NCBI RefSeq assembly: GCF_055900595.2 | Contig: NZ_CM148325.1 | Length of the DNA: 64,000 nt | Reading direction: 5' to 3' (one strand) | In this document: piece by piece, positions 28,873-49,152 of the stretch | Layout: every line of letters starts with the position of its first letter | How positions within the stretch are numbered: position 1 is the first letter of the stretch | Program-made: the position numbers and the translations under genes | Notes under the pieces: generated by a model | Databases searched by the model: none | What the model was told of the DNA's origin: nothing | What the model saw: the letters and a program-made list of their open reading frames with translations, nothing else

Positions 28873-30087
28873 ATGAAGATCGTAAAGGCTGAAGTTTTTG
28901 TTACCTGTCCGGGGCGTAATTTCGTCACATTAAAAATCACCACTGAGGACGGTATTACGGGCCTTGGGGATGCCACCCTCAATGGACGTGAGCTTTCCGT
29001 GGCCTCTTATTTGCAGGATCACCTTTGTCCGCAGCTTATTGGTCGCGATGCACAGCGTATCGAAGATATCTGGCAGTTTTTCTATAAAGGTGCGTACTGG
29101 CGTCGCGGTCCGGTGACGATGTCGGCCATTTCAGCGGTTGATATGGCGCTGTGGGATATTAAAGCCAAAGCTGCCAACATGCCGCTTTACCAGTTACTCG
29201 GCGGCGCGTCTCGTGAAGGGGTGATGGTTTATTGCCATACCACCGGTCACAGTATTGATGAAGCTCTGGATGATTATGCCCGTCATCAGGAGCTGGGATT
29301 CAAAGCCATCCGCGTGCAGTGCGGAATCCCTGGTATGAAAACCACCTACGGCATGTCGAAAGGCAAAGGTCTGGCTTATGAACCCGCAACCAAAGGACAG
29401 TGGCCGGAAGAGCAGCTGTGGTCGACGGAGAAATACCTCGATTTCATGCCGAAATTGTTTGACGCGGTACGTAACAAGTTTGGTTTTAATGAACATTTGC
29501 TGCATGACATGCACCATCGCTTAACGCCTATTGAAGCGGCGCGCTTTGGTAAAAGCATTGAAGATTATCGCATGTTCTGGATGGAAGACCCGACGCCTGC
29601 GGAAAACCAGGAATGCTTCCGCCTGATTCGCCAACACACCGTCACGCCAATTGCAGTGGGTGAAGTCTTCAACAGCATCTGGGACTGCAAACAGCTGATT
29701 GAAGAGCAACTTATCGACTATATCCGCACCACGCTGACTCACGCGGGGGGGATTACCGGTATGCGCCGGATTGCCGATTTTGCTTCGTTGTATCAGGTAC
29801 GTACTGGCTCACACGGTCCTTCCGATTTGTCACCAGTCTGCATGGCTGCGGCGCTGCACTTTGATCTGTGGGTCCCCAATTTCGGTGTCCAGGAATACAT
29901 GGGCTATTCCGAACAAATGCTTGAAGTCTTCCCGCACAACTGGACTTTCGATAACGGCTATATGCATCCGGGAGACAAACCGGGTCTTGGCATCGAATTC
30001 GATGAAAAGCTGGCGGCGAAATATCCCTATGAACCTGCTTATCTGCCAGTCGCACGTCTGGAAGATGGCACGCTGTGGAACTGGTAA
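28873..30087 (+). CDS. rspA: Starvation-sensing protein RspA (enolase superfamily, mannonate dehydratase-like)
   Basis: [43 protein letters not shown]... Confidence 0.9.
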
Positions 30088-30098
30088 GGAGTAAGATA

Positions 30099-31118
30099 AT
30101 GAAAAGCATTTTAATTGAAAAACCGAATCAACTGGCAATTATCGAACGCGAAATACCCACCCCGTCAGCGGGTGAAGTACGAGTAAAAGTGAAACTTGCC
30201 GGAATTTGTGGTTCAGATAGCCATATTTATCGTGGGCATAATCCTTTTGCGAAATATCCGCGCGTCATTGGACATGAATTCTTTGGCGTCATTGATGCAG
30301 TGGGTGAAGGCGTGGAAAGCGACAGAGTCGGTGAACGCGTTGCTGTCGATCCGGTGGTCAGCTGTGGGCATTGCTATCCGTGCTCTATAGGTAAGCCGAA
30401 CGTTTGTACGACACTGGCTGTATTAGGTGTGCACGCTGACGGTGGTTTCAGTGAATATGCCGTGGTGCCGGCAAAAAATGCGTGGAAAATTCCTGAAGCA
30501 GTGGCCGATCAATATGCGGTGATGATCGAACCTTTTACCATTGCGGCTAACGTTACCGGTCATGGTCAACCGACTGAAAATGATACCGTTCTGGTTTACG
30601 GTGCAGGTCCAATCGGCCTGACAATCGTTCAGGTATTAAAAGGCGTCTATAACGTTAAGAATGTGATTGTTGCCGATCGCATTGATGAACGACTGGAAAA
30701 AGCGAAAGAGAGCGGGGCAGACTGGGCGATTAATAACAGCCAGACACCGCTTGGCGAGATTTTCGCTGAAAAAGGCATAAAGCCGACATTAATTATCGAT
30801 GCGGCTTGTCATCCTTCAATCCTGAAAGAAGCCGTAATGCTGGCTTCTCCAGCGGCACGTATTGTATTGATGGGCTTCTCCAGTGAACCGTCTGAGGTGA
30901 TTCAGCAAGGAATTACCGGAAAAGAACTCTCTATTTTCTCTTCACGCTTAAATGAAAATAAATTCCCGGTCGTTATCGACTGGTTAAGTAAAGGGTTAAT
31001 TAAACCAGAAAAACTAATTACCCATACGTTTGATTTCCAGCATGTTGCTGATGCCATTAGTTTATTTGAACAGGATCAAAAGCATTGCTGCAAAGTCTTA
31101 CTCACTTTTTCTGAATAA
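30099..31118 (+). CDS. rspB: Zn-dependent alcohol dehydrogenase-family protein RspB
   Basis: ORF MKSILIEKPNQLAIIEREIPTPSAGEVRVKVKLAGICGSDSHIYRGHN... with zinc-ADH GHE signature and GAGPIG NAD motif. Confidence 0.9.
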   Translation: MKSILIEKPNQLAIIEREIPTPSAGEVRVKVKLAGICGSDSHIYRGHNPFAKYPRVIGHEFFGVIDAVGEGVESDRVGERVAVDPVVSCGHCYPCSIGKPNVCTTLAVLGVHADGGFSEYAVVPAKNAWKIPEAVADQYAVMIEPFTIAANVTGHGQPTENDTVLVYGAGPIGLTIVQVLKGVYNVKNVIVADRIDERLEKAKESGADWAINNSQTPLGEIFAEKGIKPTLIIDAACHPSILKEAVMLASPAARIVLMGFSSEPSEVIQQGITGKELSIFSSRLNENKFPVVIDWLSKGLIKPEKLITHTFDFQHVADAISLFEQDQKHCCKVLLTFSE

Positions 31119-31175
31119 TACCAATAACGGCGAGTAAGTAGTACGCATCTTACCTCTTTTTTAGAGATAACCATT

Positions 31176-31268
31176 ATGACAATAGAAAAACACGAAAGAA
31201 GCACTAAGGATTTGGTGAAAGCAGCAGTATCGGGATGGCTGGGCACTGCGCTTGAATTTATGGATTTC
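31176..31268 (+). pseudogene. ydfJ: 5' fragment of MFS transporter gene ydfJ, interrupted by prophage integration
   Basis: ORF MTIEKHERSTKDLVKAAVSGWLGTALEFMDF matches the YdfJ N-terminus then diverges into 12 unrelated codons and a stop; integrase gene ends 38 bp further on. Confidence 0.65.
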
Positions 31269-31305
31269 AAGAGTCATACGTGTCAACTATTTGATAAATA
31301 TTAAA

Positions 31306-32586
31306 TTAATTTTTCATTGCTTCGTTATGGGGCATGGTTGGGGCAAACTCGCTTAACTGTGTATTTAACAAAGCTACCTGTGCATTATTGTTTTCAGACA
31401 TCCATTTTCCGTATACCTGAAATACCATTTGCGCATCTGCATGGCCCATCTGGTTTGCTATAAATGCCGGATTAGCACCAGCTGTCAGCGACCAGCAGGC
31501 ATAAGTATGTCTCGACTGATATGATTTTCGATGGCGGAGTCCGGCACGTTTTATCGCTGCGTCCCACATCTGCCTTATTGAGTCAACGGTAAAATGGTCA
31601 CCATAATTTTTTACTCTCGCTGACACTTCAGGTTGAAAAACAAAGGTGCATTTTTGTTTTTCTGTTCTGCCATACTCTCTGAGGTGAACATCAATGATAT
31701 GCTCTTTGCTCAGTCTCGTTAATGTCATCTGACTCCGGAGAGCGTCGATTGCTGGCTTAATAAGATGAATGACCCGATTGGTTCCCGCCTGTGTTTTTGG
31801 TACCGTGAAACGGTCTTTTGCTAAATTTCTCCTGATCATCATTGTTCCATTTTTCAGATCTATGTCCTCCCATCCAAGTGCACACAGCTCACCAGGGCGA
31901 ACGCCAGTATAAACAGAAACACACCATAAATTTTTTGCTTGCTGATTTCTGCACGCATCGATAAGACGGATAAATTCCTCCCGCGAAAGAGGATCCGGAA
32001 TGGTTCTTGATTCCTTTAATGGCGAGATCCCCTTAAACGGATTATCTGGCAGGTAACCGTTATCAACACCAAACTGGAACACGGCGTTAAGATTTGTCAT
32101 GTAATTATTTACAGTTACAGCCGATCTCCCTGGTTGTGTAACAATATAGTTACTTTTGGGGATCTGGTATCCAGTCAGTAGCTCTTTACGAACCTCCAGT
32201 AATTTTTCTTTATTAATCGATGAGGCAAGATTTTTTTCACCGATTATGCTCAGGATATTTTTGATGACGGCACGGTATGTGTTGAGTGATGTTTTGGCGA
32301 CTTCAGTTTCTTTCAGTGCCAGAAATTTTTCAGCCAGTTCTTTTATGGTTAAATCTTGTCGGGCCTCACCAAATTTTTCCAGATTGCGTGAGGAGGGAAA
32401 CTGTTTTGCATAGTCGAAAACACCAGTTTTTATTGCGTAACAAACAGAGGCGCGTAGTTCACCTGCAACGCGCCTGTTTTTTGCTGTGTCAGGAACCCCC
32501 AGATTTTCCCTGACTCTTACGCCTTTATAAACAAACCAGATACGTAATTTCCCTCCATGGTTTTCCACGCCTGTCGGATATTTCAT
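31306..32586 (-). CDS. Prophage tyrosine integrase (IntQ/IntR-like)
   Basis: ORF MKYPTGVENHGGKLRIWFVYKGVRVRE... with C-terminal catalytic region ...RHTYACWSLTAGANPAFIANQMGHADAQMVFQVYGKW; start at ATG 32584-32586 with RBS GAGAGAGG. Confidence 0.9.
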   Translation of the reverse strand: MKYPTGVENHGGKLRIWFVYKGVRVRENLGVPDTAKNRRVAGELRASVCYAIKTGVFDYAKQFPSSRNLEKFGEARQDLTIKELAEKFLALKETEVAKTSLNTYRAVIKNILSIIGEKNLASSINKEKLLEVRKELLTGYQIPKSNYIVTQPGRSAVTVNNYMTNLNAVFQFGVDNGYLPDNPFKGISPLKESRTIPDPLSREEFIRLIDACRNQQAKNLWCVSVYTGVRPGELCALGWEDIDLKNGTMMIRRNLAKDRFTVPKTQAGTNRVIHLIKPAIDALRSQMTLTRLSKEHIIDVHLREYGRTEKQKCTFVFQPEVSARVKNYGDHFTVDSIRQMWDAAIKRAGLRHRKSYQSRHTYACWSLTAGANPAFIANQMGHADAQMVFQVYGKWMSENNNAQVALLNTQLSEFAPTMPHNEAMKN

Positions 32587-32620
32587 TTCAACCTCTCTCA
32601 TTAGTTAGTGTGGCTTTTAG

Positions 32621-32872
32621 TCAAGTAAGATGACGTCTTGGTCTCGCTGATGCCTGGCGCTCAATCCAGCGATCAATTTCTTCCAGGTTGTAAAAGCATG
32701 GACTGTTATCCCATGGCATACCGTCATGAGCGACATGCTTATATTCCCTTCCTTCCATAAACGATTTTTCCCGGGCCTTTTTTAACGTACCTTTTTTTAT
32801 TCCTTTCAGCGCAATTAACTGCTCTTCGGATACCCATTTGCCGGGAGAGACAATCATGATTACTTCGCTCAT
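32621..32872 (-). CDS. Putative excisionase / small DNA-binding protein
   Basis: 83-aa basic ORF immediately upstream of int, same strand. Confidence 0.55.
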   Translation of the reverse strand: MSEVIMIVSPGKWVSEEQLIALKGIKKGTLKKAREKSFMEGREYKHVAHDGMPWDNSPCFYNLEEIDRWIERQASARPRRHLT

Positions 32873-32944
32873 CGATTTCTTTATCTCTTACATCAGACGA
32901 GCGCCGGTTGCAGAATACCAGTCACAACCGGCGACAGTTGAACA

Positions 32945-35416
32945 TTAAGAATCAGCCTGACTCGGGATCAGTTTTTGCCAGATAACTGAAACGTATTTTG
33001 CCTGGTAACGGGCGTCATCAAGTGCATTATGCCGCTCACCTTCGAATGGAATAGCCGTTCTGGCATCGAAGTCTATGGCTTTCCCCAGCTCAACGATTGT
33101 GCGTACATCGCGATCGTTGTAGTAACGCCACGGGCAGGGGATCCCCTGCCGTTCGTATGAACGGCGCAAAATCGTGTTGTCGAAGTTGGCTCCATTTCCC
33201 CAGACCTGAACAAAAAATTCACCGGAGTTTTCGTCGATAAATTCCCGCAATTGTAACAGTGCATCATCTAACGGGATTTCATCGGTCATAATGGCAGACT
33301 GCGCTTCACGTGATTGCTTCAGCCACCATTTAATGACGTCACGATCAATGACTCCGCCAGCAGTATTCAGATCTATGGTCTTGCTAAATTCCGGTCCCAT
33401 ATCTCCGGTTTGTGGATCGAAAAATATTGCGCCTATTGAGATAATCGGGGCATCAGGATTTTTTCCCATGGTTTCAAGGTCGATCATTAGATGGTCACAC
33501 GTCCTGCTGGTGGATGTGATAACGTGATGACCGTTCACCGTAATTAAGGGATCTGCCGTCTCGCCAGTTTCACTATCGCTGGCGTGATCCTGAGCGCTGC
33601 CAGCATTCTCCTTGTGTGGATGTTCAGCGCCTTCCATTTTCTCCGAATCGTCTTCCTGAACTTCAACCTGGTTCTTGTCATCGAATGTTTCCTGGTATGT
33701 TGCGTCGCCCATCACCGCACCACATTCAGGGCAGTTGCCGCCGCCGGTCTGACCGTAGGCGGTGCAGATTTTTTCCGCTTCCTGTTGCGCTACTGGCTCA
33801 GGTTGTTTCGTTTCTGGCTCGTTTTGTAACGCATTTGGGCTGTTTTGTTCCGCTTTCTGGTCGTTCTGTTCCGTTTCTTGCTGGTTCTGGTTCACTGAAT
33901 CGCGGGTTTCAATCCCCTTCACCCATTTCGGATCATTCGGATCGCTAATCCCTGCAACAAATTCACCACGTGATACAGCAAGCAACTGATTGGCGTCAGG
34001 CTGGCTGATATTGGCTGCCTGCATAATTTTGTTTACTTCGTCAGCGGTAATTTTTACCGGCTCTGGTTGTGCGGTCGTGTCAGATGCACCAGTATTTTGT
34101 TGTGAACCTGAGTATGTACCGTTTTTGCGGGCGAAATATTCTTCTTTCGTGATTTCAGTAGCCCCGGCAGCCAGCGCCTTATCCAGACCAGAAAGTTTGT
34201 TTGCGCGACCGTATTTTTCGCCATCCTTGTCGGTAAAGAGGAAGTAGAACGGCCCCTCACGCTCTACAGATGGTTCGACTTCCACTTTGCATTCAGTTTT
34301 TTCGTTGCCCGGAATTGCCGTTTCCACTGCATCAGTTTCTGGTACTGGCGACGAGAGAGTATCAGTTGCGCTCTGATTTGTTCCTTCATCTTCAAACACG
34401 CCCTTTGTAGTCAGGTATTTAGTAATGTATTTGTTCAGTGCCACAGGGTCTTTGTGAATGTCGATCGGACGTTCACGGACAAGGCCAAAAATAGTCTGGC
34501 GGTCGTAGCGAAGGGCATCAGGCTGTTTGCGCATTGATGCCGAGATACGCTTCCAGTCTTCGCGGTCGTTGTCGATAACTTCATTTTTTGCCCAGCGATG
34601 GATGCTGCCGTCAATGTTTCCGGCATCCACATCACCAGGCCAGAGAGCGTAGGCCAGTTCGTCATCCAGTGTTTTCCATGTCTGCTTGTATTCGCGATGA
34701 GTGGCAGCAATGACCGGGTTGATTTTTCCTGTTGAATTTTCAGTGTGCTGTTGATTGGCTCTGGCGCGGGCGAGATCAACAACAGACGTGTATTTTCCGG
34801 TTTCCTTGCGTTCATTTTCGCGACGTTTTTTCCAGATGCGCATCTCTGCCTGAATTTCGGGCCATTTAGCTCCAGGATTACATTTATGTTTAACCCACCC
34901 GATGGCATGCAGCTTAAGCTCCGGATACATGGCGTTAACTTCTGGCATTTTCATCAACGCTTCAACGATATGTCCGTCGAATGTTGCCATGTCTTCCTGC
35001 AACAATTCCTGCGCGCTAATCACCATATCAACGGTGATGTTTTCACATGTGTCGAACTTAACCATGACAGCGTTCTGTACTTCAGGGGCCAGCTTGTCAA
35101 AAGTGACGTTCATCGGATCTGATTCAGTCTCAACCGGGACAAAGGAAGCAGACTCCTCATCCCAGCGGTTTTCCTGCATATATTCAGCATCCCAGGAATC
35201 GAGGGCAGGGCGGGGTATACCGGGTTTATCCTCGCAAACAAGAAATTTATAAGCGCAGTCCTGAGCAACCGGATAATGTTCCAGGAATTGCCAGTGAAAT
35301 TTTGCGCGGGCGCGACGTTCATCACCGGCTTCAATGGCAGTGGCTACAGCGATTGCACCTTCTTCCTTTATTGCCTGTTCGTCCGGAATGGCGGCGCAAA
35401 TAAAGACTTTACTCAT
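32945..35416 (-). CDS. Large RecE-like prophage exonuclease-family protein with C-terminal DnaQ-like (DEDDh) 3'-5' exonuclease domain
   Basis: 823-aa ORF; central segment ...LLAVSRGEFVAGISDPNDPKWVKGIETRDSV... resembles the RecE/YdfE family as I recall it; C-terminus has Exo I (MIDLETMG), Exo II and Exo III (ERHNALDDARYQ) DEDDh motifs. Confidence 0.7.
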   Translation of the reverse strand: MSKVFICAAIPDEQAIKEEGAIAVATAIEAGDERRARAKFHWQFLEHYPVAQDCAYKFLVCEDKPGIPRPALDSWDAEYMQENRWDEESASFVPVETESDPMNVTFDKLAPEVQNAVMVKFDTCENITVDMVISAQELLQEDMATFDGHIVEALMKMPEVNAMYPELKLHAIGWVKHKCNPGAKWPEIQAEMRIWKKRRENERKETGKYTSVVDLARARANQQHTENSTGKINPVIAATHREYKQTWKTLDDELAYALWPGDVDAGNIDGSIHRWAKNEVIDNDREDWKRISASMRKQPDALRYDRQTIFGLVRERPIDIHKDPVALNKYITKYLTTKGVFEDEGTNQSATDTLSSPVPETDAVETAIPGNEKTECKVEVEPSVEREGPFYFLFTDKDGEKYGRANKLSGLDKALAAGATEITKEEYFARKNGTYSGSQQNTGASDTTAQPEPVKITADEVNKIMQAANISQPDANQLLAVSRGEFVAGISDPNDPKWVKGIETRDSVNQNQQETEQNDQKAEQNSPNALQNEPETKQPEPVAQQEAEKICTAYGQTGGGNCPECGAVMGDATYQETFDDKNQVEVQEDDSEKMEGAEHPHKENAGSAQDHASDSETGETADPLITVNGHHVITSTSRTCDHLMIDLETMGKNPDAPIISIGAIFFDPQTGDMGPEFSKTIDLNTAGGVIDRDVIKWWLKQSREAQSAIMTDEIPLDDALLQLREFIDENSGEFFVQVWGNGANFDNTILRRSYERQGIPCPWRYYNDRDVRTIVELGKAIDFDARTAIPFEGERHNALDDARYQAKYVSVIWQKLIPSQADS

Positions 35417-35509: not shown

Positions 35510-35701
35510 TTAAAGACCTGCCGGGATTTCGTTATTATCCTGGTGAATAACTTTATCGACAGGGTAACAGTTACCGGGAATTTTCTGTTCGGTTGCTGCA
35601 GTCACACACTCCTGCATTGTCCTGTGAACACTGACTGCAATATCAACTGGTTCTCCGGAAACAAGAAAAACTGTCAGAACAAGTGCAAATGCTGTATTCA
35701 T
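35510..35701 (-). CDS. ydfD: Small lysis-associated membrane protein YdfD
   Basis: 63-aa ORF MNTAFALVLTVFLVSGEPVDIAVSVHRTMQECVTAATEQKIPGNCYPVDKVIHQDNNEIPAGL; overlaps dicB stop by 4 nt. Confidence 0.8.
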   Translation of the reverse strand: MNTAFALVLTVFLVSGEPVDIAVSVHRTMQECVTAATEQKIPGNCYPVDKVIHQDNNEIPAGL

Positions 35702-35886
35702 TGCCAGCATCCTTTTTGTATCGGACGTAAACGGGCCAGCATTGAAAGAATGCATACTTTATTTAATAGCTCCCGTTCTTGTTTTCTCTTGTTAATGGCA
35801 TCTTCAGTAAATACTGGGTTACTGATAGTGACACCAATTTCAAAACAACCTTCAGACGTATTAACGTTTGGTAATAACGTTTTCAT
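35698..35886 (-). CDS. dicB: Cell division inhibitor DicB (MinC activator; functional analogue of lambda Kil)
   Basis: 62-aa ORF MKTLLPNVNTSEGCFEIGVTISNPVFTEDAINKRKQERELLNKVCILSMLARLRPIQKGCWQ. Confidence 0.85.
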   Translation of the reverse strand: MKTLLPNVNTSEGCFEIGVTISNPVFTEDAINKRKQERELLNKVCILSMLARLRPIQKGCWQ

Positions 35887-36060
35887 TATCGCGTCCTCAA
35901 CAATGAATTTTGTGATGCAGTGCCTGGTGCCTCCAGGTGACGTTAACCAGTTAACAATTAACGTCGGATACAGAGAATCCACCCATAACACTGTTTTTGG
36001 TTTTAACTGTTCCGCGTGCGCTCAGCCGCATTCACCGCATCACAAAATTCACTTTAAAAA

Positions 36061-36113
36061 CGGCGGCAGAGCAGTCACGGAGTAAAACTGATACCGCTAA
36101 ACGTCACCAGAAA
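36061..36113 (-). ncRNA. dicF: DicF small regulatory RNA (ftsZ-targeting sRNA)
   Basis: Reverse complement TTTCTGGTGACGTTTAGCGGTATCAGTTTTACTCCGTGACTGCTCTGCCGCCG followed by T-run; near-identical to the 53-nt DicF sequence as I recall it; located just upstream of dicB. Confidence 0.75.
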
Positions 36114-36372: not shown

Positions 36373-36948
36373 TTAAGGATTCATTAAGCAATGTCGCAAC
36401 CACCAATAAATCCGCTTAAGAACATGAAAATTGATTACTGGTATAAAGCGCTTACAGTTGTTGGCGCTGCGTTGTTTGTCTTTAATGGAACGTCTTTTTT
36501 TGACAGATATTCCGTTGTTCCATTGGGTTTTTTGTCCTCCGGCATCTTTTTTATTGGTTTGGGGGAGTGGATTAATCACCCTCTCAAAGTGAGATTTATT
36601 GGTCCTGGAGTTTGGACTCGTGGATATAATCGTTCTTCGTGCGCACTCGGTATCATCTTCGACATACTTGGTTGTTTCCTGATTGTTACAGGAGTCGTCA
36701 AGTTCTTCTGATGTAAAACCGCAAATGGGGCACGTAACGGGAATTTTGAAAAGCGTTTCTCCGGGTTCCAGAACAAAATTTTCTGCGGTCTGATTTTGCT
36801 TCTCATATTTGTGCTCCGCGTCATTGTGAGAGCACATTCTTATTCTGAGGGCCTGTTTAAACTCACTGAAGCTGAGAGCTTCTTCGCCTTCGGCAAGGCC
36901 TTCGAAGTATTCTTCGTAAGCCTTTTCCATGATTGTGTCGAAATCCAT
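36373..36948 (-). CDS. Hypothetical protein, ydfB-like N-terminus continuing as a long ORF
   Basis: ORF MDFDTIMEKAYEEYFEGLAEGEEALSFSEFKQAL... starts 1 nt after the ydfA stop; contains CPICGF motif; distal part looks low-quality and an antisense membrane-like ORF overlaps it, so extent is uncertain. Confidence 0.35.
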   Translation of the reverse strand: MDFDTIMEKAYEEYFEGLAEGEEALSFSEFKQALRIRMCSHNDAEHKYEKQNQTAENFVLEPGETLFKIPVTCPICGFTSEELDDSCNNQETTKYVEDDTECARRTIISTSPNSRTNKSHFERVINPLPQTNKKDAGGQKTQWNNGISVKKRRSIKDKQRSANNCKRFIPVINFHVLKRIYWWLRHCLMNP

Positions 36949-36949
36949 A

Positions 36950-37105
36950 TCACTCACCTGAGTTTCTTTCCAGCCAGCGACGGGCACCATTTTCGGTTTT
37001 AAACGTTTTGCTTTTGGTATACGTCATCGCGGTGAACGTGCCGTCCTGGTTGGGAAACACGCCGTACACCAGAGATTCGCTGTTGCCAAGATCGATAGTA
37101 TCCAT
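36950..37105 (-). CDS. ydfA: Small prophage protein YdfA
   Basis: 51-aa ORF MDTIDLGNSESLVYGVFPNQDGTFTAMTYTKSKTFKTENGARRWLERNSGE. Confidence 0.75.
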   Translation of the reverse strand: MDTIDLGNSESLVYGVFPNQDGTFTAMTYTKSKTFKTENGARRWLERNSGE

Positions 37106-37397
37106 GCTGACCTCATTTCCCCTTAACGCCGGGGTAGCGGAACAAAAACCTGCTGCATAGTTATTAAAGTTGAACCCTGCCGTCATGTTCTTACGCCTCG
37201 GGCTGGCTACTTAACCCCTGACCACTGCCTGGTAACTCGACGTATTGCCCTGCATTCTGTGGGGCGGGGTGAGGGAATGAATGAAGTTTAGAAAAATGAA
37301 CATTTAAGGTCAATGTTTTTTTATCAAAACATTTTAAGCAGGCAGCTGTTACGCCATCACTACGATGGCATACAGTTAATCAAATAGATGAGGTTGG

Positions 37398-38036
37398 TTA
37401 AATATCTTTTTGAATTTTAAAGCATACTCCCAATATGCAAGATAGATCATCCAGCATAATTGAAGGGTAGCGAGGATTCGTGGGGACTAAAAGAATATCC
37501 GGCCCTTCTATCTCCAGTTTGCGAATGACAGGCGTTGTGGTCCCTTTGGGTAAGGCAAGGACAATATTTCCTGGTTGTACGATTCGATCGGGATCAACAA
37601 AAACTGTTGAACCATTTGGGATGGAAACTCCACCACCAGATGTCGACATACTGTCACTCTCTAGAACAACAGCAAAGGTATTGGCCGGGATTTCTCCGAC
37701 AAGCTGCACACAAGAGGTTATTGAGGAATTTTTCATATAATCACTCCAGCTTGCTGCCTGCTGAAGTGATAGTAGCGGAACCGTTTTTATCGGCGGTAAA
37801 GATAGATCAAGCGAATCACCTGTATTTAACTCTCCTCCATTAAGAAGCCAATTTTCGTTTACTTTCAATATCTTTGCCAGTGAGCTTATGTAACGCGAGG
37901 ACGGCGCTCCTCCACCGTTCATCCATTGACTTACGGAGCCTTTTGATGCGCCAGTGGCATTGACAAGGTCTTTGCCTTTCAAGTTTAGCGCATGCATACG
38001 TTGGGTTATGCGTTCAGATATTGTTTGCTTGTTCAT
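37398..38036 (-). CDS. CI-like prophage repressor (XRE HTH + LexA/S24 autopeptidase domain)
   Basis: 212-aa ORF; N-terminal HTH (...LKGKDLVNATGASKGSVSQWMNGG...) and C-terminal S24 fold with ESDSMSTSGGG serine motif; divergent from the Cro-like gene. Confidence 0.85.
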   Translation of the reverse strand: MNKQTISERITQRMHALNLKGKDLVNATGASKGSVSQWMNGGGAPSSRYISSLAKILKVNENWLLNGGELNTGDSLDLSLPPIKTVPLLSLQQAASWSDYMKNSSITSCVQLVGEIPANTFAVVLESDSMSTSGGGVSIPNGSTVFVDPDRIVQPGNIVLALPKGTTTPVIRKLEIEGPDILLVPTNPRYPSIMLDDLSCILGVCFKIQKDI

Positions 38037-38127
38037 GTTTTGATTTTAAAACACAGATGGTTTTGTTTCTTGACTTTCTTTGGTTTTGATTATTAAACTT
38101 TTGGCGTTCAGTTTTATGGAGCGAATC
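38037..38127. promoter_or_regulatory. Divergent repressor/cro promoter-operator region with three phased GTTTTG(A/T)TT repeats
   Basis: GTTTTGATTTT (38037), GTTTTGTTTC (38060), GTTTTGATT (38083) at 23-bp spacing between divergent start codons; TTGACT -35-like hexamer at 38070. Confidence 0.45.
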
Positions 38128-38370
38128 ATGAAAAAATCAGAAGTATTAGGCTATTTTGGCGGAGTTGTTAAAACAGCCGCCGCTCTAGGAACGTCAAAAA
38201 CCACAGTCAGCATGTGGGGGGAAGACGTTCCGTGGAAATGGGCGTTGCTAATTCAGGCAGTCACTGCCGGGGCGCTCAAATATGAGTTACACATACCGAC
38301 GGTTGTCATTCCCGGTTCTGATCATAATCCGCCTTCTAACCAAGGGGGGATTCATGAAAATCAAGCATGA
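38128..38370 (+). CDS. Cro/YdaS-like small HTH regulator
   Basis: ORF MKKSEVLGYFGGVVKTAAALGTSKTTVSMWGEDVPWKWALLIQ...; RBS GGAG 5 nt upstream of ATG 38128; divergent from the repressor. Confidence 0.7.
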   Translation: MKKSEVLGYFGGVVKTAAALGTSKTTVSMWGEDVPWKWALLIQAVTAGALKYELHIPTVVIPGSDHNPPSNQGGIHENQA

Positions 38371-38779
38371 ACACATCCGCATGGCGATGAATGCCTGGGC
38401 ACGTCCTGATGGCGAAAAAGTTCCGGCAGCTGGAATAACCCAGGCTTATTTTGAGTTGGGTATGACGTTTCCTAAACTGTACGACGACAGCCATCCGGAA
38501 GCCCTGGCTCGCAATACCCAGAAAATTTTCCGCTGGATAGAGAAAGACACCCCTGATGCAGTTGAAAAAATTCAGGCGTTGTTACCAGCGATCGAAAAGG
38601 CAATGCCACCTTTGCTGGTGGCCAGAATGCGCAGCCACAGTTCAGCTTATTTTCGGGAGCTGGTGGAGACGCGGGAGCGACTGGTGAGAGACGCTGATGA
38701 TTTTGTCGCAGTGGCAATCGCCGGTTTCAATCAGATGAACCGTGGTGGCCCGGCTGGAAATGCTGTGGCAGTACATTGA
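38354..38779 (+). CDS. YdaT-like early regulatory protein (CII-position gene)
   Basis: 141-aa ORF MKIKHEHIRMAMNAWARPDGEKVPAAG...; N-terminus matches Rac YdaT (MKIKHEHI...) as I recall it; RBS AAGGGGGG. Confidence 0.6.
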   Translation: MKIKHEHIRMAMNAWARPDGEKVPAAGITQAYFELGMTFPKLYDDSHPEALARNTQKIFRWIEKDTPDAVEKIQALLPAIEKAMPPLLVARMRSHSSAYFRELVETRERLVRDADDFVAVAIAGFNQMNRGGPAGNAVAVH

Positions 38780-38850: not shown

Positions 38851-39921
38851 ATGGCTAACGCCTGGCTCAGATTATGGCATGACATGCCAAATGACCCTAA
38901 GTGGCGAACAATTGCCAGGGTGTCAGGGCAGCCAATTGCAACAGTGATGGCAGTGTATATCCACCTCCTGGTGAGCGCGTCACGAAATGTCACGCGAGGT
39001 CACATTGATGTCACGACAGAAGATTTGGCAAGTGCGCTCGACGTGACAGAAGAGGTAATTGATTCAATTTTGCAGACGATGCAGGGGCGGGTACTTGATG
39101 GTGATTTAATCACTGGATGGGAAAAACGCCAGGTGCTGAAAGAGGACAACGGTAATATTTCGCAAACCGCAAAATCTCCGGCAGAGCGCAAGAGGGCGCA
39201 GCGAGAGAGGGAAAGAAAGCGGGAACAAAATGGCGATTGTCACGGCGAGTCACGAAATGTCACGCACATGTCACGACGAGTCACGACAGATAAAGATACA
39301 GATAAAGATACAGATCAAGAAGATCAAAACACTATGGTCCATGGCGTAAAAAACGCCGCGAACCAGGCAGGGGATGTTCAGACCGTCAATCTTGGTCAGC
39401 CAGCAGGCACGACACCGGAAGCCGATTCAGCGTATGCGCTGAAAGCCGATTCGGGCGCTGTGCAGCAGGTGATGACCGCAAGGCAGGAGCAATCACACCA
39501 ACTTCAGCAGCCTGAAGCCGATTCCGCCATTCAGCGGGAAGCCGATCGGGTAGTCCCGGAAAACACCGGGCAGCCTGTGGGACGAGTGGATTATCCTGAT
39601 GTGTTCGAACAGGTCTGGCGGGAATACCCGTTGCGTGCCGGGGCAAACCCGAAGAAATCCGCTTTCAGTGCCTGGAAGGCCAGATTACGCGAGGGGGTGC
39701 CACCAGAGGCCATGCTGGATGGCGTGAGGCGTTACGCAAGATACCTGGCGGCTACCGGGAAAACGGGAACGGAATTTGTTCAGCGAGCGACGACGTTTTT
39801 TGGACCGGACCGGAATTTTGAAAACCCCTGGTTGCTCCCGGTAAGCGGTACGAACAACCAGCGTTGTGTGAATCATATTTCTGAACCGGATACCGAAATT
39901 CCACCGGGCTTCAGGGGGTAA
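38851..39921 (+). CDS. Phage replication initiation protein (DUF1376/YdaU-like, lambda O-position) containing internal iterons
   Basis: ORF MANAWLRLWHDMPNDPKWRTIARVSGQPIATVMAVYIHLLV...; position after the cro/cII-like genes; internal phased GTCACG repeats. Confidence 0.6.
   Translation: MANAWLRLWHDMPNDPKWRTIARVSGQPIATVMAVYIHLLVSASRNVTRGHIDVTTEDLASALDVTEEVIDSILQTMQGRVLDGDLITGWEKRQVLKEDNGNISQTAKSPAERKRAQRERERKREQNGDCHGESRNVTHMSRRVTTDKDTDKDTDQEDQNTMVHGVKNAANQAGDVQTVNLGQPAGTTPEADSAYALKADSGAVQQVMTARQEQSHQLQQPEADSAIQREADRVVPENTGQPVGRVDYPDVFEQVWREYPLRAGANPKKSAFSAWKARLREGVPPEAMLDGVRRYARYLAATGKTGTEFVQRATTFFGPDRNFENPWLLPVSGTNNQRCVNHISEPDTEIPPGFRG
38979..39015. repeat. Iteron cluster A (4 x GTCAC(G/A) at 10-11 bp phasing) inside the replication gene
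   Basis: GTCACG at 38979, 38989, 39010 and GTCACA at 38999; shares 17-mer GTCACGAAATGTCACGC with cluster B. Confidence 0.55.
39239..39330. repeat. Iteron cluster B (5 x GTCACG at 10-11 bp phasing) plus adjacent A-rich tract; candidate phage ori
   Basis: GTCACG at 39239, 39249, 39259, 39270, 39280 followed by GATAAAGATACAGATAAAGATACAGATCAAGAAGATCAAAAC. Confidence 0.55.
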
Positions 39922-39961
39922 GTGTGTATTTCAGGTCATGAGGTAATTTTCAGGAGGACTT

Positions 39962-40387
39962 GTGGCAAAAGTTTTTACACAAGAAGAGCGAGAAAAAATT
40001 AAGGGGCAGGTTGTTGAACTTGTACGTCTGAGTGGTCGCGAGACGTTACGGGCTCTGGAGGCTAAAACCGGTGCATCAAGGTATTACATAAGCACTCTCG
40101 CCAGAGAGCTGGTTGCCAGCGGCGATGTATACAACTCTGGTTACGGATTATTCCCGTCTGAACAGGCTCGTAAGGACTGGCAAAATGCCCGCAAAAAACT
40201 CTCAAGGGCAAAGCTGAAGAAAAAAACATCTGTGGTTGATCCGGACCTTATCTGGTCATTACCTGACGGAGAAATACGTCGCTACGACAGTCGTCTAAAC
40301 ATAATCTGTCGCGAGTGCCGGAAGAGCGAAGTTATGCAGCGCATACTGGCATTTTATCAGGGAAATGTTTGGTATTTATTGAAATGA
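39962..40387 (+). CDS. Hypothetical prophage early protein
   Basis: 141-aa ORF (GTG start) (M)AKVFTQEEREKIKGQVVELVRLSGRETLRALEAKTGASRYYISTLARELV... ; basic, possible HTH. Confidence 0.45.
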   Translation: MAKVFTQEEREKIKGQVVELVRLSGRETLRALEAKTGASRYYISTLARELVASGDVYNSGYGLFPSEQARKDWQNARKKLSRAKLKKKTSVVDPDLIWSLPDGEIRRYDSRLNIICRECRKSEVMQRILAFYQGNVWYLLK

Positions 40388-41669: not shown

Positions 41670-41823
41670 TTTTATATTGGCGAGGTGACGTGAGTTAAGT
41701 AGAATTGCTGCGGGTGCTTGAGGCTATCTGCCTCAGGCATGAACACCAACGGCAGATAGAGAAAAGCCCCAGTTAACATTACGCGTCCTGCAAGACGCTT
41801 AACATTAATCTGAGGCCAATTTC

Positions 41824-42036
41824 ATGCTAGACACATGTAGGTTAGCCTCTTACGTGCCGGAAGGCAAGGAGAAGCAGGCTATGAAGCAGCAAAAGGCGAT
41901 GTTAATCGCCCTGATCGTCATCTGTTTAACCGTCATAGTGACGGCACTGGTAACGAGGAAAGACCTCTGCGAGGTACGAATCCGAACCGGCCAGACGGAG
42001 GTCGCTGTCTTCACAGCTTACGAACCTGAGGAGTAA
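41824..42036 (+). CDS. mokD: Mok-like leader frame (N-terminally extended hok reading frame)
   Basis: ATG at 41824, MLDTCRLASYVPEGKEKQA-MKQQK...; same frame as hok, as in annotated mok/hok pairs. Confidence 0.5.
   Translation: MLDTCRLASYVPEGKEKQAMKQQKAMLIALIVICLTVIVTALVTRKDLCEVRIRTGQTEVAVFTAYEPEE
41881..42036 (+). CDS. hokD: Hok-family type I toxin (HokD/RelF-like)
   Basis: 51-aa ORF MKQQKAMLIALIVICLTVIVTALVTRKDLCEVRIRTGQTEVAVFTAYEPEE. Confidence 0.9.
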   Translation: MKQQKAMLIALIVICLTVIVTALVTRKDLCEVRIRTGQTEVAVFTAYEPEE

Positions 42037-42202: not shown

Positions 42203-42817
42203 ATGCAGAATTTATCTCAACAGTTGTTAGAAGCATATGACAAGGAGTGCCGCAAAGAGCTTTCGATCGCGTTAGCACAGGCTTATCTTCATTCGCATAT
42301 GAAGGCAAAAGAGTTTGGTTCTTTTTGGGCTCAAGCACAGTCATATTTGCGCTGGTTTTATGCCGATGCATTGCTTGAGAATGCGGCTAAGCGTGTGGGG
42401 CTGGATTTTGAAGTCGGTAGCAATGCTGCTAAAAATTGTAAACACATTGCGATTCACTCGAACAACTGGAAAATGACGGCACATCATTTATCGGGTAATG
42501 CGCCACTTCCTAAGCAGGCATTGTATAGAGCTGTTTACGCTAATCAAAATTATGAATTGAATTTTGGGGATGAAAATGCCGACTCCCTGGATGGGAGAGC
42601 GTCTGGTGGACATGTTTATATGTTACATGATGGCAGTAATCAGCACTTGTCCAAACTGAATTTAACTGTTCCTTCTTCGGATAATTACGGGATTCTTTAT
42701 ACTGAGTCTTTACCAATTATGACGATGGTAGAAGTTGAAGCAGAAAATGTGGATTCTGAGATTGAAGATAAAATCAAGATTCTTACCGAACAAATAATTA
42801 AATCACAGCAATCATGA
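42203..42817 (+). CDS. Uncharacterised protein, upstream partner of the HTH-peptidase gene (candidate toxin/effector)
   Basis: 204-aa ORF MQNLSQQLLEAYDKECRKELSIALAQAYLHSHMKAKEFGSFW...; RBS AAGGA; stop overlaps the next gene's start (ATGA); no motif recognised; AT-rich. Confidence 0.7.
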   Translation: MQNLSQQLLEAYDKECRKELSIALAQAYLHSHMKAKEFGSFWAQAQSYLRWFYADALLENAAKRVGLDFEVGSNAAKNCKHIAIHSNNWKMTAHHLSGNAPLPKQALYRAVYANQNYELNFGDENADSLDGRASGGHVYMLHDGSNQHLSKLNLTVPSSDNYGILYTESLPIMTMVEVEAENVDSEIEDKIKILTEQIIKSQQS

Positions 42818-43959
42818 GCATGAATATCGCACAAACACCATTTACTGATAAATCGTTTAATCCTCGTCGCCTTGAGGAGGCAAGAGAGGCAAAAGGGTTG
42901 ACGATGGCTGAACTTGCCAGAGTGCTCAATATTTCAAGACAAGCTATTTCGTCATTTGAGAAGGGGTTGAAGTCTCCCTCTGCTGATACACTTTCTGCAA
43001 TAGCCAAGGTGTTAGGATTTCCAGAACGATTTTTCTTAGCCTCCAGTGCTTCTCCATCTCTGGAGGGGGCGATTCATTTTAGAAGTCGTTCAACTGCGAC
43101 CAAAAAGGCTCGAGTTACAGGGAAAACACGTGGGCGTTGGGCGGCATTAATATTGGATGAATGTCTAAAATATGCTCAATTACCAGATGTGGTTCTGCCT
43201 GAATTCGATATTATTGATTTTGAGGTTCTGTCTCTATCTGATATTGAGGATATGTCCACCCAATTAAGGCGTTTTTGGGGGTTAGGTGATGGTCCAATAC
43301 TCAATTTAACTAGACTTGTTGAAAATAAAGGAATCGTGGTTTCTCATTTACCTTCTGGTGAGAAAGTTGATGCCTTTTCGTTCTGGCATAATGGGCGGCC
43401 TTTAATTATGTTAGATAGCTCGAAGACGGCTGTTCGCATGCGATTTAGTCTTGCTCATGAACTTGGCCATTTAATTATGCATAGGGCAGTGGAGGATGAC
43501 TACCTGAATGATAAAGAATTATTCGACCTGGTGGAGTTGCAGGCCGATTATTTTGCCTCCAGCTTTTTAATGCCAGCCACCACTTTCGGGCGTGAATTTT
43601 ATAGTCCAAATTTATCAGCGTTAGAACGATTAAAACTACGTTGGATTACATCTATCGGTAGTATTGCCATGAGGAGTCATAGCCTTAAGTTAATCAGCGA
43701 TAATCAGAAAAGCTATATATTTAAGCAATTAGCGCCATTCCATCGTAGGGAGCCGTTAGATGATGCAATCCCAAAAGAAGAGCCTGAGTTACTTAATAAG
43801 TTACTTTTACTTCTTGATAAGCATTCAATCATAAAGGTAACTGAGTTAACTGATATCTTTGCTCTTCCCTTAAATGAGTTATCTGCAATTACACGATTTA
43901 AAGAATCAGATATGATTCATTCTGACAATGTTATTTCATTTACCATAAAACAAAAATAA
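42814..43959 (+). CDS. XRE-family HTH fused to ImmA/IrrE-type zinc metallopeptidase
   Basis: 381-aa ORF; N-terminal HTH (...LTMAELARVLNISRQAISSFEKGLKSPSADTLSAIAKVLGF...) and HExxH motif in ...RFSLAHELGHLIMH...; translationally coupled to upstream gene. Confidence 0.8.
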   Translation: MSMNIAQTPFTDKSFNPRRLEEAREAKGLTMAELARVLNISRQAISSFEKGLKSPSADTLSAIAKVLGFPERFFLASSASPSLEGAIHFRSRSTATKKARVTGKTRGRWAALILDECLKYAQLPDVVLPEFDIIDFEVLSLSDIEDMSTQLRRFWGLGDGPILNLTRLVENKGIVVSHLPSGEKVDAFSFWHNGRPLIMLDSSKTAVRMRFSLAHELGHLIMHRAVEDDYLNDKELFDLVELQADYFASSFLMPATTFGREFYSPNLSALERLKLRWITSIGSIAMRSHSLKLISDNQKSYIFKQLAPFHRREPLDDAIPKEEPELLNKLLLLLDKHSIIKVTELTDIFALPLNELSAITRFKESDMIHSDNVISFTIKQK

Positions 43960-44345: not shown

Positions 44346-45395
44346 GTGCGGGTATTACTTAGACCTGTTCTGGTGCCAGAGCTTGGGCTGGTGGTCCTTA
44401 AACTAGGCCGTGAATCCATGCCGGTATTCCACAATACCCGGGTACTGGTGGAGCCGGAACCGAAAAGCATGCGTAATCTGCCGTCCGGGGTCGTTCCTGC
44501 CGTTCGCCAGCCGCTGGTGGAAGACAAAACATTGCTGCCGTTTTTCAGTAACGCACGGGTGATTCGTGCTGCTGGTGGTGCTGGTGCATTGTCTGACTGG
44601 CTGTTGCGCCATATTAAATCCTGCCAGTGGCCGCACGGCGATTATCATCACAGCGAAACCGTCATTCACCGTTATGGTACCGGCGCAATGGTGTTGTGCT
44701 GGCACTGCGACAACCAACTGCGTGACCAGACATCCGAATCACTCGAGCAACTTGCTCATCAAAACCTGTCAGCATGGATGATTGACGTCATCGGTCACGC
44801 AATAAGCGGTACGCAGGAGCGTGAATTATCTCTGGCTGAATTATCCTGGTGGGCGCTCCGCAATCAGGTGGCGGACGCGCTACCGGAAGCGGTATTACGT
44901 CGTTCGCTGGGATTACCAGCGGAAAAAATCTGCTCGGTGTACCGCGAGAGCGACATCGTACCGGGAGAGCAGACCGCCACCAGCATATTGAAACAACGCA
45001 CAAAAAATCTTGCACCGTTGCCTTACGCCCACCAGCAACAAAAACCACCACAGGAAAAGACGGTGGTAAGCATCACCGTTGATCCAGAGTCTCCGGAATC
45101 TTTCATGAAGCTGCCTAAACGTCACCGTTGGGTTAAGGAGAAATACACACGCTGGGTTAAGACACAGCCGTGTGCTTGCTGCGGGATGCCAGCCGACGAT
45201 CCGCATCATCTGATTGGTCACGGGCAGGGCGGAATGGGAACCAAAGCACATGATCTCTTTGTGTTGCCTTTGTGCAGAAAGCATCACGACGAGTTGCATA
45301 CGGATACCGTGGTATTTGAAGAGAAGTATGGCTCCCAACTGGAGCTGATTTTTCGATTTATCGATCGCGCGCTGGCAATTGGTGTGCTGGCCTAA
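44346..45395 (+). CDS. ydfU: YdfU-like prophage protein (DUF968; HNH-like Cys/His motif)
   Basis: ORF (GTG start after GGAGG) (M)[32 protein letters not shown]...; C-terminal [21 protein letters not shown]...CRKHHDELH. Confidence 0.8.
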
Positions 45396-45412
45396 TTTTG
45401 TGGAGTAAGTTG

Positions 45413-45790
45413 ATGCGTGATATTCAGATGGTTCTTGAGCGTTGGGGGGCATGGGCGGCTAATAATCATGAAGATGTGACCTGGTCGTCCATTGCCGCTG
45501 GTTTTAAGGGATTAATTCCTTCAAAAGTAAGATCTCGTCCGCAATGCTGTGACGATGACGCGATGATCATTTGTGAATGTATGGCTCGCCTGAGAAAAAA
45601 CAACAGCGATTTACATGGTTTATTGGTGGACTATTATGTCGGCGGCATGACTTTTATGGCGCTTGCACGTAAGCATGGGCGATCTGATTGTTGGGTTGGC
45701 AGGATGCTCCAGAAAGCTGAGGGCGTAGTGGAGGGCATGCTGATGGTATTGGATCTCCGATTGGAGATGGATGCTGATTGTTCGAAATAA
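45413..45790 (+). CDS. Late-gene antiterminator Q (short QuuD-type)
   Basis: [79 protein letters not shown]...; RBS GGAG. Confidence 0.85.
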
Positions 45791-45888
45791 TTAAAGGAAA
45801 AGTTGCTGTCTGATTGTCATTAGTCTAACATTTTAAATGTTGGAATCGCAACGTAGTTATTATCATATAACAGCTTGTTTCCTGATTT

Positions 45889-45918
45889 AGCCAGCCTCCC
45901 CAAAGGCTGGTTTTTTTC
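45889..45918 (+). terminator. Rho-independent terminator downstream of Q (tR'-like)
   Basis: CCAGCC-tccccaaa-GGCTGG stem followed by TTTTTTT. Confidence 0.55.
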
Positions 45919-45945
45919 TAATAAGTATCATTTCGGGTAGGGATT

Positions 45946-46476
45946 TTATTGTTTAACCCATAATAATTCATTGACATTGAATCCCAACTTTTGAGCGGTT
46001 CGCACATAGTCTGCTTTTACTTTATCTGGAATAGTTGGGGTCCTTGCCAGAATCCATAGGTATTCTCTGTTCGAACCACTAACAAGAGCATACTTATACT
46101 CATCATCCAGTTTGATTACATTATAGCCACCATAGAAGGGGCCAAAAAACGAAACCTTCAACGCTGCAGTTTTAGTATCTCCAGTAAAGTATGCTTTACC
46201 TTCGCTCTCGCTCCATTTATTTTTCGTTGGATCGTATCCACGGTTAAGTACACGAATCCCTCCGTCGTTCCGTTTTCCATAAGTAGCGCTGACCTGCTCC
46301 AGACCACGTTCGAACCGGTTCTCGAGGCGAGCTATTTCATACCATTTTCCGAGGTAGCGGTTGGCGTCAAAATTTGTAATCGGCTGCACACCTTTAGGTG
46401 GTGTCGGGGCCTTACATGCTATAAGAGTGAAAGAGAGTGCAATGCCAGTCAACACAGGCCATAACTTCATAATCAA
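45946..46476 (-). CDS. Outer-membrane lipocalin (Blc homolog) lipoprotein, prophage moron
   Basis: 176-aa ORF with lipobox (...SFTLIAC) and lipocalin core FDANRYLGKWYEIARLENRFERGLE...YLWILARTPTIP; opposite strand to flanking late genes. Confidence 0.85.
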   Translation of the reverse strand: MIMKLWPVLTGIALSFTLIACKAPTPPKGVQPITNFDANRYLGKWYEIARLENRFERGLEQVSATYGKRNDGGIRVLNRGYDPTKNKWSESEGKAYFTGDTKTAALKVSFFGPFYGGYNVIKLDDEYKYALVSGSNREYLWILARTPTIPDKVKADYVRTAQKLGFNVNELLWVKQ

Positions 46477-46662
46477 TCCTGTACTTTTGATAGTTGAGAG
46501 TAAGTATGAAAGATAGATGATTACGACCGATCACTTAAAGAACTTTCATACTATATTAGGAATAGTCCATAACAGAAAAATTGTCAGTGATGACGTCAGA
46601 AAGGCAATTTATTCCGTGCACTACACAGTTTATGTGTTAATGAATTAGTCAAGGGGGAGGAT

Positions 46663-47622
46663 ATGATAAAAAAACCTGTGATTGGAATCAGCGGTTGTTT
46701 GGCCGGTTCTGCTGTTCGTTTTGATGGTGGTCACAAAAGAGCTGACTTTTTAATGGACAAATTAGTGGAATGGGTAACATTCAGACCAGTATGTCCGGAA
46801 ATGGCTATAGGGCTGCCAGTTCCGCGTCCTGCTCTACGTCTTGTGCGCTCGAAGCAAGGAAATATACGGATGTGTTTCAGCCACGACCAGAATGAGGATG
46901 TGACAGAGAGAATGACAGAGTTTAGTCGTTCTTATATGCACAAATTAAAGGATGTATCGGGGTTTGTGGTTTGTGCTAAATCTCCCAGCTGTGGCATGGA
47001 GCGCGTGCGTGTCTATGATGAAAATGGTAATCGAGGTCGTAAAGATGGAGTGGGACTATTTACGAGCACTTTGATGGAAAAGTTTTCCTGGCTACCGGTT
47101 GAAGAGGATGGGCGATTACATGATCCAGTGCTTCGTGAGAATTTTGTTGAAAGAGTTTTTGCTTTGCATGAGCTCAATCACCTTTACAAGGAGAAATTAT
47201 CAAGAAGAGAGTTATTAGCTTTTCATAGTCGTTATAAGCTTCAGTTGTTGGCGCATAGTCAGGCAGGCTATAAAGATATGGGACCATTTGTGGCTGCAAT
47301 ACACGAGTGGGCGGACCTTGAATCATACTTTGAGGTGTATCGTGATAAGCTGATGGCGATTCTCAGAAAACCTGCATCACGTAAAAATCACACGAATGTG
47401 CTGATGCATATACAGGGGTATTTTAGTAATTACTTAAGTACACGCCAGCGTAAAGAGTTGACCGAGGTTATACTTAACTATCGCTTTGGCACATTGCCTC
47501 TTCTTGCGCCGTTGACTCTGCTGAAGCATTATCTGGGTGAGTATCCTAATGATTACTTGCTTACACAGAATTACTTCGATCCCTATCCGGAAGAACTGGC
47601 TCTAAGACTGATGGTGAATTAA
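46663..47622 (+). CDS. DUF523 (TudS-like Fe-S) / DUF1722 (YbgA-like) fusion protein, prophage moron
   Basis: 319-aa ORF; N-terminus MIKKPVIGISGCLAGSAVRFDGGHKRADFL... with conserved cysteines; C-terminal half resembles YbgA/DUF1722; RBS AAGGGGGAGG. Confidence 0.7.
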   Translation: MIKKPVIGISGCLAGSAVRFDGGHKRADFLMDKLVEWVTFRPVCPEMAIGLPVPRPALRLVRSKQGNIRMCFSHDQNEDVTERMTEFSRSYMHKLKDVSGFVVCAKSPSCGMERVRVYDENGNRGRKDGVGLFTSTLMEKFSWLPVEEDGRLHDPVLRENFVERVFALHELNHLYKEKLSRRELLAFHSRYKLQLLAHSQAGYKDMGPFVAAIHEWADLESYFEVYRDKLMAILRKPASRKNHTNVLMHIQGYFSNYLSTRQRKELTEVILNYRFGTLPLLAPLTLLKHYLGEYPNDYLLTQNYFDPYPEELALRLMVN

Positions 47623-49148: not shown

Positions 49149-49152
49149 TCCA

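Follow-up and report, generated by a model that had tools for sequence, protein, structure and literature searches.

The DNA analysed here, 64,000 nucleotides of contig NZ_CM148325.1 (NCBI RefSeq assembly GCF_055900595.2) and hereafter called the window, begins as ordinary Escherichia coli chromosome, with positions 1-31118 running from tqsA through ynfEFGH, speG and rspA to rspB. A first-pass annotation placed at 31176-31310 a prophage junction inside the transporter gene ydfJ, the site that the defective prophage Qin occupies in E. coli K-12. Among deposited phages the closest is Tritos (46,360 bp), whose architecture is that of the element beginning here. The features at the junction are:

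30099-31118, plus strand: rspB, the final intact chromosomal gene ahead of the junction (annotation in aligned reference genomes; open reading frame (ORF) 30075-31118).
31176-31268, plus strand: 5' fragment of ydfJ, codons 1-31, with the promoter region upstream (matches the intact YdfJ N-terminus and the synthetic attB described below).
31176-31304, plus strand: fusion ORF of 31 ydfJ codons and 11 phage-derived codons (42 amino acids), the counterpart of K-12 ynfP.
31253-31271, no strand: attL core, TGAATTTATGGATTTCAAG (alignment of attL, attR, attB and four attP).
31269-31305, no strand: start of the phage P' arm, from the core to the int stop codon (matches the attP of deposited phages).
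31306-32586, minus strand: tyrosine integrase of the IntQ type, full length (Pfam Arm-DNA-bind_2 and Phage_integrase).
32621-32872, minus strand: excisionase (Pfam DUF1233, putative excisionase; 100% identical to Tritos Xis and absent from K-12 Qin).

The fusion ORF translates as MTIEKHERSTKDLVKAAVSGWLGTALEFMDF followed by the phage-derived KSHTCQLFDKY and a stop, and its residues 1-31 are those of the intact YdfJ N-terminus in strain Z0117EC0005 (MTIEK...EFMDF-QLYSLGAALVFHE). Identity to ydfJ stops exactly at base 31268, the final base of ATGGATTTC, so the break after MDF is where the first-pass annotation had put it; the intact integrase that it saw ending 38 bp further on does so to the base, with its stop codon at 31306-31308 on the minus strand. 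Between the two, 31269-31305 has exactly the sequence found right of the attP core in mEp460_ev081 and Tritos, with HannyBb and PhiR42_1 almost the same, and the P' arm probably extends into int at its 3' end. A scan of the junction gave no promoter-like or terminator-like sites above shuffled expectation, and no terminator between the ydfJ fragment and int. The small ORF at 31176 is a piece of ydfJ (ydfJ', the equivalent of K-12 ynfP) rather than a novel gene, and a functional YdfJ transporter is absent from the strain.

A synthetic empty site was made by joining window 31080-31268 to the ydfJ sequence beyond the attR of strain JNE25-001. Because this construct matches, in a single piece and at 100% over 320 bp, genomes that are annotated with an intact ydfJ, the position of the junction is not a matter of chance. 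Single-piece matches to the synthetic attB occur in 2009 of 5426 complete E. coli genomes, and the occupied arrangement of rspB, ydfJ fragment and int in 2649 of them, when coverage of 80% or more of a 2.7-kb query is required. Published figures for Qin, which integrates at the 5' end of ydfJ, give about 48% of strains as occupied, with prophage sizes of 11-97 kb (PMC6379469).

The att alignment drew on the window attL, attR from JNE25-001 and LF82, attB from Z0117EC0005, and attP from four deposited phage genomes. Exactly 11 bp, TTATGGATTTC (31258-31268), are common to attL, attR and attP; attB reads ...GCGCTTGAATT(T/C)ATGGATTTC-CAGTTATATT... and attP ...ACACCTGTGAATTATGGATTTC-AAGAGTCATAC.... 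A looser 18/19-bp att, TGAATT(T)ATGGATTTC(C/A)AG, is also found here and agrees with that reported for prophages in ydfJ, a published integration locus with an 18- or 19-bp att for which attP was obtained from a sequenced PCR amplicon (PMC8112680). The attP of HannyBb, mEp460_ev081 and PhiR42_1 is the exact join of the reference attR phage arm and the window attL phage arm, and that of Tritos departs from the predicted attP solely by a G to C change in the core. In LF82 the two cores are unequal (attL ATGCATTTC, attR ATGGACTTC; core positions L010 1463-1471 and L011 1417-1425), and each variant base goes with the right-hand arm. Strand exchange may therefore take place in the left part of the 18/19-bp att, at or left of the step between ATG and G, a few bases before 31268. 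A scan of attP for arm-type repeats gave short two-copy repeats only, none of them convincing. With the junction the same in K-12 and LF82, the assignment of the junction to ydfJ at the Qin site is upheld.

The integrase ORF (31306-32601, minus strand) encodes 431 amino acids, or 426 as annotated in relatives, and carries the Pfam domains PF00589 (catalytic) and PF12167 (arm-binding, N-terminal). It is identical to Tritos Int at 425 of 426 residues and 43% identical to IntR. Alignment with Tn1549 Int finds the Arg, Lys, Arg-His, His and Tyr residues present, with Tyr at the first His position (SYQSRH), as is likewise the case in Rac IntR; Tritos Int has the same sequence there. The integrase is full length, as first proposed. 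An undamaged int-xis segment was found in 2531 of the 5426 genomes, which makes an intact module the norm at the ydfJ site and K-12 the exception.

We regard it as very likely that a Tritos/mEp460-like lambdoid temperate phage has integrated in the 5' end of ydfJ, with its attL at 31176-31310, the whole forming an element of about 47.2 kb. In the proposed event, an IntQ-type integrase would recombine attP (...ACACCTGTGAATT-ATGGATTTC-AAGAGTCAT...) with attB (...GCGCTTGAATTT-ATGGATTTC-CAGTTATATT...), splitting ydfJ after codon 31. The ydfJ promoter and first 31 codons would be left fused to phage DNA as the ynfP-like ORF, and int, xis and the early-left operon would be placed immediately inside attL.

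Since no genome in the collection matches the window's flank exactly, the far end of the element is read from a proxy. Distal genes and attR were taken from a composite of the window and JNE25-001, whose prophage copy is 99.96% identical, with 8 differing positions in 31269-52700 and 4 in 50833-64000. The JNE25-001 element measures 47,235 bp and ends ...GTGAATTATGGATTTC-CAGTTA..., after which comes a ydfJ fragment annotated without its N-terminus. By extrapolation, the attR of the window prophage would lie at window-equivalent 78495-78503, some 14.5 kb past the window end, and would read ...ACACCTGTGAATTATGGATTTCCAGTTATATTCG... before running into the rest of ydfJ.

Up to the tape-measure gene, int, xis, the CI-type repressor, replication, Q, lysis, cos and the head and tail genes are intact in the window. 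The packaging and structural region consists of:

53344-53360, plus strand: cos region, GGGCGGGAGCGTCGCGG (the linear record of Tritos begins at window 53344).
53528-63081, plus strand: TerS, TerL, W-like adaptor, portal, ClpP-protease/capsid fusion, DUF2190, head completion, neck, U, V, G and T.
63053-64000, plus strand: first 948 bp (5' part) of the tape-measure gene, cut by the window end.

The left end of lambda is GGGCGGCGACCTCGCGG, and the putative cos sequence GGGCGGGAGCGTCGCGG at 53344 resembles this cohesive end. Pfam identifies a GpA ATPase/nuclease and a CLP_protease plus Phage_capsid_4 combination among the packaging and head genes. Nucleotide identity to Tritos is 99.2% over 53344-64000. 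None of the twelve complete structural proteins is shortened or interrupted by a stop, and their amino-acid identities to Tritos run from 97 to 100%. In the composite with JNE25-001, the tape-measure gene occupies window-equivalent 63053-66115 (tblastn), H, M, L, K, I and J follow at full length, and then come Lom, side-fibre genes, pin and ydfK; every protein from TerS to J is full length. The complete lambda-like morphogenesis module of the first-pass annotation therefore holds within the window as far as the 5' part of the tape-measure gene, the rest being seen in the JNE25-001 copy only. The side tail fibre of the proxy carries a 'pseudogene' flag from the NCBI Prokaryotic Genome Annotation Pipeline (PGAP), which we did not count as a defect: the gene is one continuous, stop-free frame at 74% identity to Tritos Stf (tblastn).

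The age of the insertion can be approached through its surroundings. First, compared with JNE25-001 the chromosomal flank differs by 2.708% and the prophage by 0.037%, the change falling at the junction. Second, Z0117EC0005, one of the two strains nearest to the window in the chromosomal flank (99.6% identity), has an intact ydfJ of 455 amino acids and an empty attB. Third, near-identical late regions are found in 69 genomes only, whereas the ydfJ site is occupied in about half. All three favour a recent horizontal acquisition over an old relic, and the contrast between 2.7% flank and 0.04% prophage divergence illustrates recent phage spread between E. coli lineages. The flank itself (8000-31268) belongs to a sparsely sampled lineage, with 8 of 5439 matching records at least 99% identical and most at about 97.3%. 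We infer a single element of about 47.2 kb, recently acquired, which is probably still able to excise and form virions.

Beyond the excisionase lies the gene for a large nuclease:

32945-35416, minus strand: 823-amino-acid exonuclease, with a RecE-like non-catalytic region and a C-terminal DEDD 3'-5' exonuclease domain.

This protein is full length, with no stops, and 90% identical to its Tritos counterpart; K-12 ydfE corresponds to its N-terminal part. The description of it as a full-length RecE-like exonuclease was right about length and about a RecE-like middle region, which is non-catalytic, and wrong where the RecE catalytic domain is concerned. In BLASTP against K-12 RecE only residues 262-626 align, with RecE 278-592, outside the catalytic C-terminus, the likeness being very close over about 480-626, and residues 642-813 match the Pfam family Rv2179c-like (DEDD 3'-5' exonuclease). 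The NCBIfam RecE equivalog PRK09709 reaches 268 bits where the cutoff is 1269, and the match covers profile positions 261-603 of 877 only. A RecE-family label for the catalytic domain was accordingly rejected. The window protein, of a kind usually annotated 'exonuclease VIII', is a chimera of a RecE-like region and a DEDD domain. RecE itself (exonuclease VIII, of prophage Rac) differs in its catalytic C-terminal domain, which the window exonuclease does not match, and no gene for a RecT-like annealing protein lies beside the window gene. The arrangement matches the 'Tritos' class of recombination module, described as nuclease-only and Chi-rich (PMC12315714); the prophage part of the window has 8 Chi sites on the top strand and 2 on the bottom strand.

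Lysogeny would be governed by a repressor of the CI type:

37398-38036, minus strand: CI-type repressor with a helix-turn-helix (HTH) and an S24 peptidase domain (Pfam HTH_3 and Peptidase_S24).

The HTH_3 score of 21.5 bits is just under the gathering cut-off of 23, and the protein can be aligned to lambda CI and P22 C2 across its two domains and keeps the Ser-Lys dyad (Ser129, Lys173). PGAP annotation of the reference genome covers only its C-terminal 112 amino acids. The immunity module differs from that of Tritos, and among deposited phage records the immunity block occurs in only three, all prophage-derived. Since two of these (ON470) come from a study of phages located in the genomes of clinical isolates, such records do not show inducibility, which for the window prophage is plausible but unproven.

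Several observations weigh against an active phage with a single far end in ydfJ. At the Ala-Gly scissile bond of lambda CI, P22 C2 and the mEp460_4F5 repressor, the window repressor has Ala94-Ala95. No isolated phage carrying this immunity region was found among deposited records. The gene ydfR is truncated (74 of 103 residues aligned to Tritos) and ydfB/ydfC are replaced, changes that may not matter. Both attR and the distal tail genes lie outside the window, the best chromosomal flank identity in the collection is 99.6%, and in some lineages ydfJ holds clusters of two to four prophages (PMC8112680).

The most serious rival, which we hold doubtful while giving it real weight, is that the prophage is intact in appearance and yet grounded, domesticated at ydfJ and either not inducible or unable to yield infectious particles, through an uncleavable repressor or a defect beyond the window. 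Besides the Ala-Ala pair, an immunity allele known from no isolated phage and a distal third outside the window, it can draw on IS2 insertions already present in two otherwise identical copies in other genomes. However, Ala-Ala is kept in homologues of the repressor subfamily down to 83% identity, along with the catalytic Ser and Lys, and so is the native state of the family and not a private lesion; a private inactivating mutation was rejected on this basis. Every checked gene is full length, and the low divergence of the prophage relative to its flank, with an empty site in the closest relative, speaks for recent spread. A related proposal sees in the prophage a heteroimmune relative of Tritos, active and now in circulation, in which Ala-Ala would alter RecA-dependent cleavage and bring an unusual threshold or route of induction; it seems to us unlikely.

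Less probable again, and in our view improbable, is that the junction belongs to the first member of a tandem or nested cluster at ydfJ, with the matching attR much further off or part of another element. The clusters mentioned above are documented in O157:H7 and other Shiga toxin-producing E. coli (STEC) (PMC8112680), and Qin-site prophages of up to 97 kb are reported (PMC6379469), but the JNE25-001 copy is a single element between ydfJ fragments and the window holds one uninterrupted genome in lambda order from int to the tape-measure gene. That a deletion, or else homologous recombination involving another prophage, cut ydfJ, with the adjacency of int secondary, can virtually be dismissed, since in spite of reported recombination and inversions between ompW and ydfJ prophages (PMC8112680) the break falls, to the base, at the core of attL, attR, attB and four attP and recurs in K-12 and LF82.

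The remaining features of the Tritos/mEp460-like prophage, in order along the window, are:

35510-36112, minus strand: ydfD-like gene, dicB and DicF small RNA (sRNA), a Qin-type cell-division inhibition cassette (identical-reference annotation; tblastn against Tritos).
36061-36112, minus strand: DicF sRNA beside dicB (Rfam, 64.8 bits, above the gathering score).
38128-38779, plus strand: Cro/DicC-like regulator and YdaT-family protein (reference annotation; Pfam YdaT_toxin).
38851-40387, plus strand: replication initiator or helicase-loader-like protein and DUF977 (Ren-like) protein (PHROG 3729, replication initiation protein).
41712-42036, plus strand: sok antisense RNA and hokD toxin gene (Rfam sok 115.8 bits; hokD 100% identical to Tritos).
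42203-43959, plus strand: RmrT/RmrA pair, RosmerTA anti-phage defence cargo (PADLOC RmrT E 7.5e-10, RmrA E 5.5e-102).
44346-45790, plus strand: ydfU (DUF968) and antiterminator Q (Pfam DUF968, Phage_antitermQ).
45946-48742: moron block between Q and holin, with the lipocalin gene on the minus strand.
48933-51053, plus strand: lysis cassette of essQ-type holin, truncated ydfR, endolysin and Rz (reference annotation; tblastn against Tritos).
51259-51675, plus strand: cspA-type 5' untranslated region thermoregulator ahead of cspI (Rfam, above the gathering score).

A ydfA-like gene stands between DicF and the CI-type repressor in gene order. The minus-strand ORF at 36373-36990 (205 amino acids) is made up of 14 upstream in-frame codons, the first 34 codons of ydfB and unrelated sequence that takes the place of ydfC and the C-terminus of ydfB; no model in Pfam, PADLOC or NCBIfam matches it, and the reference genome leaves it unannotated. 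In the phage record 640R1 the counterparts of the Cro/DicC-like and YdaT-family proteins are annotated as DicC and cII. The replication initiator and the DUF977 protein are 98.9% and 88.7% identical, respectively, to Tritos proteins. The sok antitoxin RNA (41712-41886, plus strand; above the Rfam gathering score) overlaps hokD, and RmrT and RmrA, the latter an HTH joined to an M78 peptidase domain, are both 100% identical to the Tritos pair.

The moron block comprises the lipocalin, a 2-thiouracil-desulfurase/DUF1722 (YbgA-like) protein and an AraC-type HTH regulator, and several deposited genomes of lambda-like phages carry the same block, 88-94% identical; the Q-moron-holin block as a whole matches IdasGreatGrand at 94.5% and lambda-like records of the Lambda_ev/1H12 series at 87.8%. 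In the lysis cassette S, R and Rz are full length (tblastn against Tritos), while 49153-50016 holds the truncated ydfR and then about 640 bp that are absent from Tritos and K-12 and contain a small minus-strand hypothetical ORF. The genes cspI, ynfN and gnsB lie between Rz and cos. RosmerTA, hok/sok, DicB/DicF, the cold-shock genes and the lipocalin/YbgA/AraC moron block are the cargo of a probably mobile 47-kb phage. In the chromosomal part of the window, a 402-amino-acid ORF for an IS4-family transposase (3399-4607, minus strand) lies between ydgI and ydgH and is absent from Z0117EC0005.

Much about this locus is already known, including the ydfJ site (PMC6379469), the att sequence (PMC8112680) and a functional phage, Tritos (PMC9928086). 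What is new here is the mosaic combination within the Tritos/mEp460-type phages at the Qin site; the element is otherwise an ordinary one, and its significance beyond correct annotation is slight. Three comparisons place it. The STEC prophages named PPydfJ (Nakamura et al. 2021, PMC8112680) are, like the element described here, lambda-like and inserted in ydfJ via an 18/19-bp att, but they carry type III effector loci (nleC/nleG) and are often grouped in prophage clusters, whereas no effector genes were seen in the window.

The second comparison is with Tritos and its relatives. Tritos is prophage 3 of the adherent-invasive E. coli (AIEC) strain LF82, at an identical ydfJ junction; it is spontaneously induced (2.8e6 genomes/mL), gave a plaque on MG1655 hsdR- and has been imaged as a siphovirus (PMC9928086). 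The Tritos, mEp460_ev081, HannyBb and PhiR42_1 group has the same ydfJ integration junction and the same attP arms as the window, with Int 99.8% and Xis 100% identical, and the nuclease-only recombination module, replication genes, RosmerTA, ydfU and cos in common. Three modules are unlike Tritos, namely CI/Cro (37271-38349), the segment 40484-41421, and Q plus morons (45395-48904): the CI, Cro and Q of Tritos are non-homologous to the window alleles, and Tritos has a cspB region where the window has the moron block from Q to the holin (lipocalin, YbgA-like, AraC-type HTH). Relative to Tritos, the window prophage also lacks ydfC and ybcV and has a truncated ydfR.

Finally, the statement in the first-pass annotation that K-12 carries Qin in ydfJ, with intQ a pseudogene and ydfE interrupted by IS2, agrees with the K-12 annotation, where the ydfE pseudogene abuts an IS2E remnant. 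The attL and attR junction sequences of Qin are identical to the reconstructed sites of the window prophage, and K-12 ynfP (MTIEK...MDFKSHAC and a stop, 36 amino acids) is a ydfJ-5'/phage fusion ORF at the same position as that of 42 amino acids in the window. The two elements have in common int, ydfE (the exonuclease N-terminus), ydfD, dicB, DicF, ydfA/B, hokD, ydfU, essQ, rrrQ, rzpQ, cspI, ynfN and gnsB, and the Qin markers dicB/DicF, hokD, ydfU, essQ-rrrQ-rzpQ, cspI and gnsB are syntenic. Between 26014 and 32465 the window is alignable with K-12 (97.4%) as far as the IS2 breakpoint, the intQ pseudogene region included, and the equivalent of 32466-34649 (int N-terminus, xis and exonuclease C-terminus) is missing from K-12, where the IS2E remnant lies. 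Past 34649 K-12 aligns in scattered early and lysis genes only. Qin, at 20.5 kb, carries the DicA/DicC immunity genes and relBE, whereas the window element has a different CI/Cro pair and a different Q; it is also far more complete than Qin, which is without packaging, head and tail-shaft genes. The locus is a clean, intact counterpart of the K-12 Qin relic.

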